Sequence record: MN895436.1
Source of the DNA: Escherichia phage teqsoen
Direction: 5' to 3' (one strand)
DNA length: 64,000 bases
Shown here: positions 4,768 to 21,721 of the stretch, piece by piece
Layout: the number at the start of each line of letters is the position of its first letter
How positions within the stretch are numbered: position 1 is the first letter of the stretch
Made by a program: the position numbers and the translations under genes
The notes under the pieces: model-generated
Told to the model about the DNA's origin: nothing
Database searches by the model: none
Seen by the model: only the letters and a program-made list of their open reading frames with translations

Positions 4768-6194
4768 TAAAATTTTAATTCATTTGCCAAAGCATCTAAC
4801 TGAGCTCGAGTGGATTCATTTCTTTGATAGCGATTCTGCTCAGCCTGAATCTGTTGTGAACCTGCTACTTCACTCACTTCAGTTGGAGTAGAATCTTGTT
4901 CAATTTCTACCCATTTTTGATTTCCTTTTTGAACACCCATCAAAAACTTATTCCACTTATTCTTATCACCATATCGTGATTTGATTTGCTTAATGAGTTG
5001 CTGTTCAGCAGCTGCTAGCTCCTCGGTTTCAATGACCGCAAGCATAAAATCAGCGGTTGCTGGAAGACCAGCAGATTCTGCAATATCGCTCATGTTAACA
5101 TCGGAAGAGTCCCAAGCTTGTTTACCAACCTGTGCTGCAGTCCAAAGAACAGTTTCGGTTTCAACAGCCAGAGCACGCAATTCCTCTGCGATAGCTTTAA
5201 CAGTTGTGTAACTATTTTCTGAGTAAACTCTAATGCGGCAAGATTTACAAATACCTAGATAGTCGACAATAATGATTGTTGGAACAAAATTCTTCTTGAG
5301 CTTTAATTCATTTAAAAGTGATCGAAATGTATTAGCGTCTGCTCCACCAGTAGGATATTGCTTAACGATTAAACGACCAAGGGTAGATTTCTCACGCCAT
5401 TTTTCCATTTTTCCTTTATATTCAGCGTAAGAAATATGTCCATCATCAATGTCATCAAGAGAAACATCAAGCATGTTAGCGTCAATACGCTTAGCACAGA
5501 CTTCTTCTGCCATTTCCATGGAGATATAAAGAACGTTATGACCAAGCTGCAAATAATCTGCTGCTAATGAACAAAGTCCTAATGATTTACCAACGTTAAC
5601 GCCAGCCATTAAAACGTTCAGTGTTCCAGTTTCAGCTCCGCCTTTAGTAATTTTGTTTAGAATTCTGAGTTTAAATGGAACCTTACGAGCTTTATTCATA
5701 TAAGATAGCCAACGCGCTTCATAGTCATCCATCCAATCATGACCAACGTAGCTATCAAATGAAATTGATAATGCTTGGCGCATGATGTCAGGAATAGCAC
5801 CTACATCTGGCATTTTCTTATTTCGTTTTTCCGGAGGAAGCTCAGCATTAGTTTGAATTTCGATTATTTTAGATGTAGCATTAAACATCGCCCTTTGCTG
5901 AACATATTTTTCTGTTTCTTTTACTAACCAGCTGTGGTCTTCTGGAGAATCAGCCAGTTTTGAAATAAGTGTTTTTACACCAGAATATTCTGTTTCAGTA
6001 AATGAACTATTTTCTAATGCAACATTTAACGCATTAATAGATGGAACGCTATGATACTCATTAACATGAGATTTAATTAATTTGAATGTATTTTTAGCTG
6101 GACCACTTTCAAAATATTCTGAATCCATATATGGCCAAACTTTTGAAAAATAAGCTTGATCAAATATGAGATGAGAAAGAATAATTTCTACCAC
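4767..6194 (-). CDS. 41: replicative DNA helicase (gene 41)
   Basis: 475 aa; DnaB-family Walker A GVNVGKS; T4 gp41 length. Confidence 0.94.
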   Translation of the reverse strand: MVEIILSHLIFDQAYFSKVWPYMDSEYFESGPAKNTFKLIKSHVNEYHSVPSINALNVALENSSFTETEYSGVKTLISKLADSPEDHSWLVKETEKYVQQRAMFNATSKIIEIQTNAELPPEKRNKKMPDVGAIPDIMRQALSISFDSYVGHDWMDDYEARWLSYMNKARKVPFKLRILNKITKGGAETGTLNVLMAGVNVGKSLGLCSLAADYLQLGHNVLYISMEMAEEVCAKRIDANMLDVSLDDIDDGHISYAEYKGKMEKWREKSTLGRLIVKQYPTGGADANTFRSLLNELKLKKNFVPTIIIVDYLGICKSCRIRVYSENSYTTVKAIAEELRALAVETETVLWTAAQVGKQAWDSSDVNMSDIAESAGLPATADFMLAVIETEELAAAEQQLIKQIKSRYGDKNKWNKFLMGVQKGNQKWVEIEQDSTPTEVSEVAGSQQIQAEQNRYQRNESTRAQLDALANELKF

Positions 6195-6203
6195 ACTTAC
6201 TCC

Positions 6204-6560
6204 TTAAAAGAATTTAAATTTTTTCTTTGACCTTTTATTAAATGCATCTTGCAGTTGCATTGTAATACATTTTTCTACATGAGGAGCTAACTCAGCTTTT
6301 CTTTCTTGGTCAAGAACAGCAAAGTCCATTACGACTTTTCCATCAACCCAATCTAATTTTGTCACATACACAATGTGTGTAGAACCATCTTCTAGTTTAA
6401 TGACAATCTCCTGGATAACATTTTCCATGGCAGATTTAATTATCTTAAGAGATTCATTAAAAAGACGTTCTTTTCTTTCTTCTTCCCCCTCCGAAGAGGG
6501 GGATTCATCGATAATTTCTAAATCTAAATCATCTTTACTCATTAAATTCTTCCATATCAC
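6204..6560 (-). CDS. 40: gp40-like protein
   Basis: 118 aa acidic ORF between 41 and uvsX; overlaps uvsX start. Confidence 0.65.
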   Translation of the reverse strand: MIWKNLMSKDDLDLEIIDESPSSEGEEERKERLFNESLKIIKSAMENVIQEIVIKLEDGSTHIVYVTKLDWVDGKVVMDFAVLDQERKAELAPHVEKCITMQLQDAFNKRSKKKFKFF

Positions 6561-7716
6561 TTAACTGCTCGAGGTCAGTTTCTAAATCAGCAGCTGATTT
6601 ACTTTTACTTTCTGGAGATTTAAATTTTTCAACCTTTGAGTTAATCAATTCATCAACTTCAGCTTCAACAATTTCATTACTATCAATAGCACCTAACTGA
6701 TAAGCACGTTTAATAGCATCTCGGAATGGTTGATGCTTAAATAAAGGACCCCAGAATGTAGTGCAGTTGGTATCTTTTGCACGCCAAGATTTTTCTTCGC
6801 GAATCATCTCGCCGGTTTCTTCATCAAGAAATTCACGAGCATACCAGCCATTTTTAGGTTTTACCACGAATCCTAATTCTAGAGCCATATCTAACAATCC
6901 AGAATAAGGATCGATACCACCGTCAAATTTAACATCAATAAAGAATTTACTTTTTTCTTTAACGGTACGAGATTTTTCTACATTTAGAACAAATTGATAC
7001 CCCTGAAGATCAGAACCATCTTTAATCTGACGCTTACCGATAATGAATACAGTATCAGCCGAATACATTACGCCTGTACCACCTGTCATCACGGTTTTAC
7101 TAAACATTTCAATTGTTTCAATTGTATGGTTAACCGCAACACATGGAATATTTTTAATGCTAAAGTAAGGAGTAACAATACGGAATAATGACTTCAGTGA
7201 TTTAGCACGAGTCATATCTGCCACAGATTTTTCATTCAAGGCATCTTCAGTTTCTTTCTTAGAAGCCATATTACCGATTGAGTCGATGAATACAATAACT
7301 TTTTCACCACGCTCAATAGCTTCAAGCTGATTCACCATATCAATTTTCAGCTGTTCAACTGACTGGATTGGCGTATGAATTACTCGTTCCGGGTCAACTC
7401 CCATGGATCGCAAATAAGCTGGAGTAATACCAAATTCGCTATCATAGAATAGACAAACCGCGTCAGGATATTTGTTCAAATACGCCGCAACCATAGTCAA
7501 AGACATATTTGATTTAAAGTGTTTAGAAGGCCCTGCGAAAATAGTTAAACCAGACTGCATACCACCATCAATCGCACCAGAAATAGCAATATTAAGCATT
7601 GGGATTTTTGTACGGATTACATCCTTTTCATTAAAGAATTTAGATGTAGTCAGTTCAGCAGTCATTTTAGAAGTGGAAGCTTTAATCAAACGGGATTTTA
7701 AATCTGCAATAGACAT
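6535..7716 (-). CDS. uvsX: UvsX recombinase (RecA-like)
   Basis: 393 aa; MSIADLKSRLIKASTSK...; P-loop GPSKHFKS. Confidence 0.94.
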   Translation of the reverse strand: MSIADLKSRLIKASTSKMTAELTTSKFFNEKDVIRTKIPMLNIAISGAIDGGMQSGLTIFAGPSKHFKSNMSLTMVAAYLNKYPDAVCLFYDSEFGITPAYLRSMGVDPERVIHTPIQSVEQLKIDMVNQLEAIERGEKVIVFIDSIGNMASKKETEDALNEKSVADMTRAKSLKSLFRIVTPYFSIKNIPCVAVNHTIETIEMFSKTVMTGGTGVMYSADTVFIIGKRQIKDGSDLQGYQFVLNVEKSRTVKEKSKFFIDVKFDGGIDPYSGLLDMALELGFVVKPKNGWYAREFLDEETGEMIREEKSWRAKDTNCTTFWGPLFKHQPFRDAIKRAYQLGAIDSNEIVEAEVDELINSKVEKFKSPESKSKSAADLETDLEQLSDMEEFNE

Positions 7717-7793
7717 TCATTTTTTCCATAGGCATCATTATATTTTCCTCACTGGTTAAAGATAGAGTAATTATAACACAATAAATTTAGGCA

Positions 7794-8642
7794 TTAATCA
7801 ACTGCTATTGGATGAATAGCATTAAACTTATGAAATGCTTCTGATTTTTCTTTGCGCGAAACACACATGCGAAGAACCTTTAATGGCTCGTCTTCTTCAC
7901 CCAACGATTTTCGTTTTTCAATATTAGAAGTTTTCCAACGAGCTTGCTCTGGAAACTCTCTATTGATTTGCTCAAGCGCTCTATTATGTTTAGAATTACT
8001 ACGAATTGAACTGCACCCGCCAGGAGCTTGTGCTTTTCCAGATACAACCAGATATTTGAACAAGGCCAAATGCGGATAACCTTGATTAATTAAATTGAGA
8101 AATGCATACATATCTTCACATAAATCAATTTTTCCATACCCAATTTGTTCTGTCGTAAGTTTTCCGAGGTCATACCATGTATTCGTGAATCCATATGAAT
8201 TTTCACGATAATTACCCCAAGATGAAGTAATTTTAAAAATAGGTAGACGAGCATGACCGTGATAATACCCGCAATCCATAGCATCTTCAACGTATTGAAT
8301 CAATTCGTAGAATTGTTCACGGGTTAATTGATTGACTTTATCTACACAGCGACGATCATCTCTTTTTCGCATTGAGCTCATACGAATCGTAGTATCATCG
8401 TCAATCATCCAGATTCGTTGACCTGCATACATATCAGTAATTGCTTTACGAGTACCGGCAATTCCGTTTACATCATCAGGAATAGTTACAATTTTAGCTC
8501 TAGACCCATAGGCATCATAATAAGCTTTTTCTTCATGTTCACGCACTACAATATGGGGTTCATAATCAGTCGGAAACATATCAAGGGCAGAAACTGCCCC
8601 TACGCGTTGATAGCTTGGAATTACGAATTGAATCATTTCCAC
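7794..8642 (-). CDS. putative glycosyltransferase (DNA glucosyltransferase candidate)
   Basis: 282 aa with DxD-type motif WMIDDDTTI; occupies the position where T4 has beta-gt. Confidence 0.5.
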   Translation of the reverse strand: MEMIQFVIPSYQRVGAVSALDMFPTDYEPHIVVREHEEKAYYDAYGSRAKIVTIPDDVNGIAGTRKAITDMYAGQRIWMIDDDTTIRMSSMRKRDDRRCVDKVNQLTREQFYELIQYVEDAMDCGYYHGHARLPIFKITSSWGNYRENSYGFTNTWYDLGKLTTEQIGYGKIDLCEDMYAFLNLINQGYPHLALFKYLVVSGKAQAPGGCSSIRSNSKHNRALEQINREFPEQARWKTSNIEKRKSLGEEDEPLKVLRMCVSRKEKSEAFHKFNAIHPIAVD

Positions 8643-9373
8643 TCACCGTTATAATCTTTTTTCACAATATGAGTTTCGCCAGTATTCCACCAATGATCAA
8701 CCAAGTAAAAATGACGAGAATATACATGAAGACTTCCAACATTCCATATAATAGAACCTGCTTTATACTGACGAGTTGAATCGCCTGCATTCAAATCAGA
8801 TACTAATTTATCTAATACGTATTTTTGCCATGCATAATCATTACGGAATCCGAAGACCACGTCATTTGAGCGCATGCTTACTACTGCATTGACTTTCTTA
8901 TCACGAATCAGGTACTGTACTGTATTCGTACACATGAAATCTGACATACCATCTTTATTGTAGTCAAATTGCATGGATGGACGAGTATAAATCATGATAC
9001 CACGTCGAGAATCAGGATTTTGACCAAGTTCAGCTAAACACATATCATACTGGGCATAGTTATCTTCTGACCAGATAGCCCAACCGTAATTTGAGTTAAT
9101 TTCACCTTTAGAAGATGCTACTTGTTGCCAAATCTTCGGTGTTTCACCCGGAATATCTTTAACAAACAGACTTTGAGACTTGTACCATTCAAGTTCACGC
9201 TGAATGTATTCATCATTAAGAGCGCCAAAAATAAACGGTTCATCTGCTACAAATGATGCGCCAATAATTTCAATAGTTTTAACACCAGTTTTATCAACTA
9301 CGAAATCTTTTTCCTTTAATGCAGTTCCCAAATGAAGACGGATTTCTTCAACTGTCATAGAGTCACTAATCAT
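8633..9373 (-). CDS. 42: dCMP hydroxymethylase (gene 42)
   Basis: 246 aa, thymidylate-synthase-like; T4 gp42 length and position. Confidence 0.9.
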   Translation of the reverse strand: MISDSMTVEEIRLHLGTALKEKDFVVDKTGVKTIEIIGASFVADEPFIFGALNDEYIQRELEWYKSQSLFVKDIPGETPKIWQQVASSKGEINSNYGWAIWSEDNYAQYDMCLAELGQNPDSRRGIMIYTRPSMQFDYNKDGMSDFMCTNTVQYLIRDKKVNAVVSMRSNDVVFGFRNDYAWQKYVLDKLVSDLNAGDSTRQYKAGSIIWNVGSLHVYSRHFYLVDHWWNTGETHIVKKDYNGEWK

Positions 9374-9526
9374 TTAAACCTCAATTGATACATTCATATT
9401 TAACTTGTAACAGTAATAAACCCCAACCTAAAATAATAGTTGGAATCATAAGAGGAACCGTTACACTATAGTATATACTTATTATAATCATCAAGATTAA
9501 AAGCAATGCTGATATAATTTTGCTTT

Positions 9527-9778
9527 TCATTCCTTCTCTCTGATGATAATTACCTGATTTGGCTGCGCAGACTTTTTAGTTTCACCTGCAATTGACCAAA
9601 TAAATGTAATAAACCAACCAATAATTGACCAGTTAAACAGTAAAGATGTGAAAAAGATTCCTACTGTCGATTTTGACCCACGCATCAAGGCGATAAACCA
9701 TGGAAGCATGTATATAATAATAGCCAACACGCCTGAAACTAAAACCATAAAAATTGAACCTGCTACTAAAGTTTCCAT
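9527..9778 (-). CDS. imm: Imm superinfection immunity membrane protein
   Basis: 83 aa, two TM helices; T4 Imm length and position. Confidence 0.85.
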   Translation of the reverse strand: METLVAGSIFMVLVSGVLAIIIYMLPWFIALMRGSKSTVGIFFTSLLFNWSIIGWFITFIWSIAGETKKSAQPNQVIIIREKE

Positions 9779-10176: not shown

Positions 10177-10413
10177 TCAAATGCAAGTAGTAATTACTCC
10201 AGTAGTGCTTATGCAGGTATTACCCATTTGCACACCTAAAGATCCATTTGTATTCACATGAAGATTATCATCAATTTTAACTGATATTTTACCATTAGTG
10301 TGAATAACAGTGCTAGATTCAATCACAGGTTGAGTATCATTTTCAACACTAACAAATGGAACTGCTGCTAATGCAACTAAACAAACTGCTAAGCATCCCA
10401 TAACAATTTTCAT
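10177..10413 (-). CDS. small secreted protein
   Basis: 78 aa from ATG 10413 (GGAGA RBS) downstream of promoter; track ORF extends upstream through the promoter. Confidence 0.5.
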   Translation of the reverse strand: MKIVMGCLAVCLVALAAVPFVSVENDTQPVIESSTVIHTNGKISVKIDDNLHVNTNGSLGVQMGNTCISTTGVITTCI

Positions 10414-10450
10414 TTTATTCTCCAAATCCGTATCAGTAGTTGATAGTTGT

Positions 10451-10480
10451 ATAGTACCATAGAAGAACAGGGATGTAAAC
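10451..10480 (-). promoter_or_regulatory. early promoter cassette
   Basis: GTTTAC, 18 nt, TGgTACTAT; A/T-rich upstream element; near-identical copy at 52879-52908. Confidence 0.7.
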
Positions 10481-10564
10481 AGTTTTGTGAAAAAAATTTT
10501 TAGGGAATCCAAAGGGTCCAGAATCATCTCTTTTTCATAAGTATAGATTTATATTACTTGTATG

Positions 10565-13375: not shown

Positions 13376-13612
13376 TTAAATTTCTATTGTACGACGCGAT
13401 ATAACGGACTTGCCATCTGTATTTGTGGTTTTGATAATCGCATGAAATGCGCGTTGGCGTGGGTAAACTAATCGTTGGAATTCTTTTTGGAATTCTATTT
13501 GTTTATCTTCCGGGAGGTCAAAAACCAGTTGGGTAGAAGACAGACCATATGTTTGTTTTAGATTTTCGAATATTAGAAAAGCTTCGGTAAACTGAATCTC
13601 TGATTGTGTCAT
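13376..13612 (-). CDS. hypothetical protein
   Basis: 78 aa from internal ATG 13612; track start overlaps regA. Confidence 0.45.
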   Translation of the reverse strand: MTQSEIQFTEAFLIFENLKQTYGLSSTQLVFDLPEDKQIEFQKEFQRLVYPRQRAFHAIIKTTNTDGKSVISRRTIEI

Positions 13613-13622
13613 ATAATTTACC

Positions 13623-13991
13623 TTAATTACCAATCGTATATTTAGGAACGAGTTTCCATTCATGTTTTTGTTTAAAAGAAATAACTCGGAAGTTATTAGT
13701 TAAATCTTTCATAAAAGTTCTTTGACCAGGAACGATTTCAATCAGTCCCCAATCTTCTAACAGCCATGCAATCGAATCACGACGAACTTCATCTTCTTCT
13801 GTCATTTCAACTTGGCGACCATCCATACGAAGCATTTCTTTAAAATGAACGATATAGTATAGTCCTTTTTTCTGAAGAATATGACAGGACTGATACAGAA
13901 CTTTATCTTTATTATTAGCAATTCCCATACGAGTCAAAGTTTCTTTTACTTTCAGAAAATCTTCAGGTTTTTTAAGAGTAATTTCAATCAT
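13623..13991 (-). CDS. regA: RegA translational repressor
   Basis: 122 aa, matches T4 RegA (MIEITLKKPEDFLKVKETLTRMG...). Confidence 0.9.
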   Translation of the reverse strand: MIEITLKKPEDFLKVKETLTRMGIANNKDKVLYQSCHILQKKGLYYIVHFKEMLRMDGRQVEMTEEDEVRRDSIAWLLEDWGLIEIVPGQRTFMKDLTNNFRVISFKQKHEWKLVPKYTIGN

Positions 13992-20275: not shown

Positions 20276-21478
20276 TTATTTTGTAATAATGTCAAACTGT
20301 TCTTTAAAGCAGAAGCTTGAATCTTGATGCTGATACAAAAATTCATAAGCTTTTTCGCGTTCGCGGTCATAAAGAGCTCGGTCAGATGACAGTTCTTTAA
20401 TACGTTCAAATGTTGATTCCATATCATTTTCATCAAACCAAATGATACCGCTATCATGCGAGGTCAAAGGAGTATTATCAACACGGAATTTTAAATTTTC
20501 GCCAGTAGATTTCCAAAATACCGGAATTGTTCCACATGCACCAAGCTCGAGATGAGTATATTCTAAAGAGCGCTGTAGATATTTTTTATCCAACTTACTC
20601 AACTGATAACCAAATCCGGATTTACTCATACGTTCAAGCATTTCGCTATTTACATAACGATCGAGAATTTGCGTTGGTAAATTAGGAGCAATTTTAATTT
20701 GGTCTACTTGATGAAGACGATAATACTCGTATGGAATTCCTTTTTCTTTAATAGGAATGAACGCTGGAGAACGTTCCAGACCTTCCATAATAGTACTTAG
20801 TCCTGCAGGTTTAAGATGTTTTTCGTGAAAATCAAACATCTGATAAAAACCTTTCCATGTAGTCGTACGACCAATCCAACGGTTGACATTCATGTTAATT
20901 TCAGAAACATCTTTCCAGTAGGTTGACCGAACCTTCGCAATATCCATAGGAGGCTGAAAGTTATATACGGTCGGCGCTTCTTCAATATCATCAAACAGAG
21001 AAACAGTTTCTGGATACCATTCTTTCATCAGAACTTTATTAAAATCACCATTATCAGAATGGCTAAAAATAACATCAGCTCGACGAACAGTTTCTTCTAA
21101 TCCCAAATTTCGACGCAAAGAAAGAGAAGAATGGTCATGTTGATAAACTACAACACGAACCGAAGGTTTAATGTTATCAATAATTTTTTTATAGTTATTA
21201 ATAGTGTCTTCTTCAACTGAAGTAGCAGGAACTGAATTGATAATTAGAATATCACAATCATTTACCAGCTTAAGTGTTTTATCGTATTCTTTTGCCAATA
21301 AAATCGGAATTGAAAATGATTTATAATCATGCGCACAGTTACGAGTAAATGATTTATCTTTGGCATAAACCAAAGTTACTTCATGACCATTTTTAATAAA
21401 CCAATCACGTTGCTCAAGAGAAAATTTAGTTACACCGCAACCTTCAAGACCTCGAGCCATAAAAATACATACTTTCAT
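20276..21478 (-). CDS. agt: DNA alpha-glucosyltransferase
   Basis: 400 aa; matches T4 a-gt as I recall it (..CIFMARGLEGCGVTKFSLEQRDW..). Confidence 0.88.
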   Translation of the reverse strand: MKVCIFMARGLEGCGVTKFSLEQRDWFIKNGHEVTLVYAKDKSFTRNCAHDYKSFSIPILLAKEYDKTLKLVNDCDILIINSVPATSVEEDTINNYKKIIDNIKPSVRVVVYQHDHSSLSLRRNLGLEETVRRADVIFSHSDNGDFNKVLMKEWYPETVSLFDDIEEAPTVYNFQPPMDIAKVRSTYWKDVSEINMNVNRWIGRTTTWKGFYQMFDFHEKHLKPAGLSTIMEGLERSPAFIPIKEKGIPYEYYRLHQVDQIKIAPNLPTQILDRYVNSEMLERMSKSGFGYQLSKLDKKYLQRSLEYTHLELGACGTIPVFWKSTGENLKFRVDNTPLTSHDSGIIWFDENDMESTFERIKELSSDRALYDREREKAYEFLYQHQDSSFCFKEQFDIITK

Positions 21479-21530
21479 TTAATATCCTCTTTGTTTTGGT
21501 TTATTTTACCAAAAATTTATAAAGCAATAT

Positions 21531-21546
21531 AGGAGCCGAAGCTCCT
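21531..21546 (-). terminator. GC hairpin
   Basis: AGGAGC-CGAA-GCTCCT. Confidence 0.4.
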
Positions 21547-21721
21547 ATCCGCATAATACGCCATACAAAGGCTCATTAGAACTTCTAAATTTTATGCGCT
21601 TATATGTTATAGTTCCTTCTGCTTTAGCTTTATCATAAGACTCTTTAAAGCGTCTCATCATTTCCTCTTTAGAGGAACGAATTTTATTATAATCTATTTC
21701 AGAAGTCTGGATGTTCATCTT

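Follow-up and report, generated by a model that had tools for sequence, protein, structure and literature searches.

Which glycosyltransferase lies between uvsX and gene 42 in Escherichia phage teqsoen, and which sugars would it leave on the phage DNA? The question arises because T4 is annotated with segA and a 351-aa b-gt at the syntenic position, and a sequence-only reading of the teqsoen locus had described an ORF shorter than the T4 b-gt of about 351 aa. Within the 64,000-nucleotide stretch of record MN895436.1 that we analyzed (the window), the list of ORFs contains an uninterrupted minus-strand ORF at 7794–8642, encoding 282 aa from a GTG codon, with the neighbours which that reading had named. 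The length given there holds for the mechanically called ORF but probably not for the gene. An ATG at 8636, two codons inside the ORF, overlaps the stop codon of gene 42 as ATGA, and the annotated ba-gt copies of RB32 and T2 begin at that ATG and encode 280 aa; based on this, the true gene most likely spans 7794–8636 on the minus strand (280 aa plus stop).

The downstream flank of the gene is the uvsX recombinase (6535–7716, minus strand; assigned from the ORF list and synteny with RB32), separated from it by a 77-nt spacer (7717–7793). On the other side lies gene 42, encoding dCMP hydroxymethylase (8633–9373, minus strand; Pfam Thymidylat_synt, 1.2e-15), which is syntenic with gene 42 of RB32, T2, T6 and T4 and is predicted to be translationally coupled to the ORF, which would be read from the ATGA overlap. 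The same slot holds ba-gt in T2, T6 and RB32. A scan of 7600–9700 for promoters and terminators returned 14 sites vs. 8.9 ± 3.2 in shuffled sequence, which is not above expectation. The homing-endonuclease genes that flank the glucosyltransferases in T4 are missing from the window: segA is absent between uvsX and ba-gt, and mobB is absent beside the a-gt (21479–21721), in both cases as in T2 and T6.

Direct alignment showed that the encoded protein shares 99% amino acid identity with the T2 enzyme over 280 aa, 98% with the T6 enzyme over 261 aa and 99% with the RB32 copy, while the annotated copy of Bas40 (FelixPlatter, a BASEL phage) is 100% identical. A DNA search matched the ORF to 478 phage records; in 474 the match spans 80% or more of the ORF, and vB_EcoM_R5505 is the nearest (100% identical). 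The named features among these matches are beta-glucosyl-HMC-alpha-glucosyltransferase or beta-alpha-glucosyltransferase. Protein homologs were found in 688 phage records, of which 471 were at least 95% identical and approximately 200, from T4-like phages of Klebsiella, Enterobacter and Salmonella, were 60–80% identical. Judged by this conservation in 478 records for DNA and 688 for protein, the ORF is a real gene and a chance ORF is ruled out. The protein also matched PHROG 842 (E = 1.1e-89) and the TET-associated glycosyltransferase family of Pfam (TAGT, PF20691; E = 2.1e-9, profile positions 2–205 of 205), where its 38.1 bits exceed the curated gathering score of 27.5 bits, and the literature places the T2/T6 enzyme in this same family (PMC13216743, PMC13390438). 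NCBIfam held no model for this protein and none for a-gt. We estimate a probability of about 95% that the ORF is the T2/T6-type beta-alpha-glucosyltransferase gene (beta-glucosyl-HMC-alpha-glucosyltransferase, ba-gt, ggt or TAGT), the second-glucose enzyme that the sequence-only reading had offered as an example, and nothing contradicts this assignment.

The fold of the protein points in the same direction. The motif WMIDDDTTI, picked out from the letters alone as a GT-A-like DxD, is present, with the DDD codons at 8394–8402 (minus strand) encoding D79-D80-D81. A search for homologs yielded 11 relatives with identities between 98% and 28%, and in a 10-sequence alignment reaching down to 32% identity all three aspartates were invariant, as was D175, with E174 nearly so. 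From the single sequence AlphaFold gave too poor a model to use (pLDDT 39), and the model used was built from the 10-sequence alignment (pTM 0.71, mean pLDDT 69, with 84–95 over residues 1–80); it is moderately confident, with residues 126–151 and the C-terminus below pLDDT 50 and only ten sequences behind it. The model contains a beta-alpha-beta-alpha-beta-alpha-beta Rossmann-like half ending in the DDD motif, which follows strand 74–77 at the end of strand beta-4, and E174-D175 (8112–8117, minus strand) lies approximately 95 residues past the DxD, at the N-terminus of helix 174–184. Foldseek comparison of the model retrieved GT-A and inverting GT2-type matches with modest E-values. The modelled protein thus has a glycosyltransferase fold, a single Rossmann-like alpha/beta/alpha domain of GT-A type that matches solved GT-A structures and is nearest to inverting GT2 enzymes. 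An AF3 model in the literature likewise assigned the T6 enzyme to the GT-A superfamily, as a sister to GT2 (PMC13216743). The protein sequence alone, searched against the PDB, gave chance matches only (E > 1) and no TAGT-family structure; a profile search gave one weak match (E = 0.23), to a PglI-like beta-1,3-glucosyltransferase over residues 2–83, which is suggestive only. By analogy with general GT-A enzymology D79–D81 should hold the metal and the UDP-sugar, and E174/D175, placed like the ED/TED motif in inverting GT2 enzymes, is a candidate catalytic base.

The proposed partner of this enzyme is the DNA alpha-glucosyltransferase a-gt, a GT-B enzyme. As the sequence-only reading had it, the a-gt gene of the window is intact (20276–21478, minus strand), and it encodes 400 aa, which align over their whole length with T4 a-gt at 91% identity and match Pfam AGT (PF11440) at 8.5e-237. 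In the pathway that we envisage, gene 42 would make hydroxymethyl-dCMP, which is built into phage DNA as the source of 5hmC, and a-gt would add alpha-glucose to approximately three quarters of the 5hmC, creating the acceptor for ba-gt. With host UDP-glucose as donor, ba-gt would then attach a second glucose, beta-1,6 onto the alpha-glucose, to give gentiobiosyl-5hmC. This transfer is most likely metal-dependent and inverting, because a UDP-alpha-glucose donor gives a beta-linked product; inversion also fits the GT2-like fold. T2 and T6 carry no b-gt, their a-gt alpha-glucosylates approximately 75% of 5hmC, and the second glucose is beta-1,6-linked (PMC6024577, PMC13160076, PMC11078745). Glucose transfer onto alpha-glucosyl-5hmC DNA is documented by T6 genetics and biochemistry, and deletion of the T6 gene leaves alpha-glucosyl-5hmC only (PMC11078745, PMC13160076). 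The activity and its effects on host defences are taken from the literature, whereas the catalytic residues and the sugar ratios of teqsoen are what we infer.

Since a-gt and ba-gt co-occur in the window and b-gt is missing, the virion DNA should contain bare 5hmC, alpha-glucosyl-5hmC and gentiobiosyl-5hmC, without beta-glucosyl-5hmC. This T2/T6-type prediction agrees with the earlier expectation of a different sugar pattern. LC-MS of ten Tequatroviruses with the same gene set detected exactly these three species in two patterns, one with 5hmC, alpha-glucosyl-5hmC and gentiobiosyl-5hmC at approximately 1:2:2 and the other with 5hmC making up about a third and gentiobiosyl-5hmC the remaining two thirds (PMC13390438).

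A rival reading is that the protein is a diverged orthologue of T4 b-gt, which would place a single beta-glucose straight onto 5hmC. T4 b-gt does sit at the same position, and several GenBank records loosely name the gene 'b-gt' or 'beta glucosyl transferase'; however, BLASTP of the window protein against T4 b-gt found no similarity (best E = 2.2), and tblastn of T4 b-gt against all 64 kb of the window returned nothing under E = 8.9 and thus no b-gt homolog. The Pfam assignments are likewise split, with T4 b-gt scoring 9.4e-98 to the GT-B family PF09198, which the window ORF does not match, and the window protein matching PF20691 only. Further, its model matches GT-A structures only, and LC-MS detected zero beta-glucosyl-5hmC in phages with ba-gt and without b-gt (PMC13390438). 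We therefore reject T4 b-gt orthology, to which we attach practically no probability and which these comparisons of sequence and fold already refute; the suspicion that the ORF was not T4 b-gt was correct.

Two other readings accept the family but question what the enzyme does. A TAGT enzyme might use another donor or acceptor, e.g. another sugar or bare 5hmC, as the family is diverse, solitary TAGT homologs without a-gt or b-gt suggest other specificities (PMC13216743) and a homolog at 28–32% identity exists. The window copy, however, has only three differences from T2 in 280 residues and four from T6 in 261, is identical to the Bas40 protein and co-occurs with a-gt, and at this level of identity to T2 and T6 a change of specificity is very unlikely. 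Somewhat less far-fetched, but still improbable, is that ba-gt is inactive or weak, leaving DNA with essentially alpha-glucosyl-5hmC only. T2, with a 99%-identical gene, makes only about 5% gentiobiosyl-5hmC (PMC13160076, PMC6024577), and T6 record MH550421 carries a TAG at codon 10. Against this, the window ORF is intact, lacks the T2-specific H11 and S251 and belongs to the allele common to RB32 and Bas40, and all ten measured Tequatroviruses with a-gt and TAGT had approximately 40–67% of cytosines gentiobiosylated (PMC13390438). An active beta-alpha-glucosyltransferase of T2/T6 specificity is the reading that we retain.

How much gentiobiosyl-5hmC such an enzyme would produce is a separate matter. 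The gentiobiosyl share of hmC is approximately 5% in T2 and 72% in T6 (PMC6024577, PMC13160076, PMC11078745). Relative to the window protein, T2 ba-gt carries R11H, V50I and P251S and T6 ba-gt carries Y40N, V50I, D55G and R106H (the second letter being the residue of T2 or T6), substitutions for which no functional difference is known. The window allele lacks the T2-specific H11 and S251 as well as the T6-specific N40, G55 and H106 and is the common allele, also found in RB32 and Bas40; because these phage-specific residues are absent, a substantial gentiobiosyl fraction is expected in teqsoen DNA. The exact fraction is not predictable from sequence, since near-identical enzymes accompany values as different as approximately 5% (T2) and 72% (T6), and the Durham phages have about 40% or 67% of their cytosines in this form. 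That H11/S251 in T2 and N40/G55/H106 in T6 set the conversion of alpha-glucosyl- to gentiobiosyl-5hmC is conceivable but unlikely, and expression level or differences in a-gt are equally plausible causes of the gap between T2 and T6. If true, such an allele effect would explain the old puzzle of 5% in T2 vs. 72% in T6, and with the consensus allele the ratio would be a defined one and, through it, would set the sensitivity to Brig1, BapA/Brig3 and GmrSD-type defences.

The T6 record itself contains an oddity. In MH550421, at about 5951–5953 on the minus strand, ggt has an in-frame TAG at codon 10, which is CAA (Gln10) in the window, T2 and RB32. The gene is annotated there as 261 aa from Met20, and the product would miss IQFVIPSY, the first beta-strand of the nucleotide-binding fold, which is odd given the 72% gentiobiosyl-5hmC of T6. 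Either a mutation in the phage stock or an error in sequencing could account for the TAG.

Several small minus-strand ORFs were noted near the locus. ORF 9381–9530, which encodes a hydrophobic protein of 49 aa between gene 42 and imm, corresponds to 42.1 of RB32, matches phrog_3610 at 1.3e-25 and is unannotated in T4, T2 and T6. ORF 10177–10527, between imm.1 and the DNA polymerase gene 43, has a hydrophobic signal-like segment and matches phrog_4189 (unknown function) at 1.4e-29; because the match begins at residue 39, the true start is probably internal. In this interval T4 has no annotated gene and T2 has an 83-aa hypothetical. ORF 13376–13663 (95 aa), between gene 43 and regA and overlapping the 3' end of regA, matches phrog_3826 (unknown function) at 1.5e-33, and the gap between 43 and regA is approximately 327 nt in the window vs. 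78 nt in T4, T2 and T6.

Teqsoen is an ordinary Tequatrovirus; over 25 kb the window shares approximately 97.5% identity with several coliphages of known sequence. Thomas et al. reported that most RB phages have an a-gt about 91% identical to that of T4 and a ba-gt about 99% identical to that of T2, with no b-gt (PMC6024577), and the window shows the same pair of values. In a 2026 survey most phage genomes with these enzymes paired a-gt or b-gt with TAGT, and a-gt and b-gt occurred together in just 6 of 753 genomes, those of T4 and close relatives (PMC13216743). In Tequatrovirus the combination of a-gt and ba-gt is the common published arrangement, and the b-gt of T4 is rare (PMC13216743, PMC6024577). 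Both the gene and its activity are already in the literature, as are its distribution and anti-defence role, with T6 deletion mutants and LC-MS data on related phages among the published work, and the assignment made here is an annotation-level fact established for hundreds of related phages. It matters because the 5hmC sugar pattern determines which of the host's defences a T-even phage is exposed to: Brig1, in vitro, excises alpha-glucosyl-5hmC and spares gentiobiosyl-5hmC (PMC11078745), gentiobiose resists the BapA hydrolase (PMC13160076), and gentiobiosyl DNA is still targeted by GmrSD-type enzymes (PMC13216743). The host range of teqsoen, and how it behaves in restriction or CRISPR assays, thus become easier to predict once it is known to carry a-gt and ba-gt without b-gt.

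Among known systems the closest are the T2 and T6 enzymes, which share with the window protein the locus, the 280-aa length, 98–99% identity and a-gt as partner. T4 b-gt is alike in its syntenic position, in using UDP-glucose and in joining glucose to modified phage DNA by a beta-glucosidic bond, but it is unrelated in sequence, has a GT-B rather than a GT-A fold and acts on bare 5hmC, whereas the acceptor of the window enzyme would be alpha-glucosyl-5hmC. The inverting GT2 enzymes of GT-A fold (BcsA, TarP/TarS, GlfT2 and the PglI-like beta-1,3-glucosyltransferase) share just 10–17% sequence identity with the window protein, which would differ from them in accepting a DNA-borne glucose and in having no membrane domain. 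The TAGT family is matched above threshold across the full 205-position profile; the 5hmC of teqsoen, however, would come from the gene 42 dCMP hydroxymethylase before replication rather than from a TET/JBP dioxygenase, and its ba-gt would act on a sugar already on the base rather than on the hydroxymethyl group of the base.
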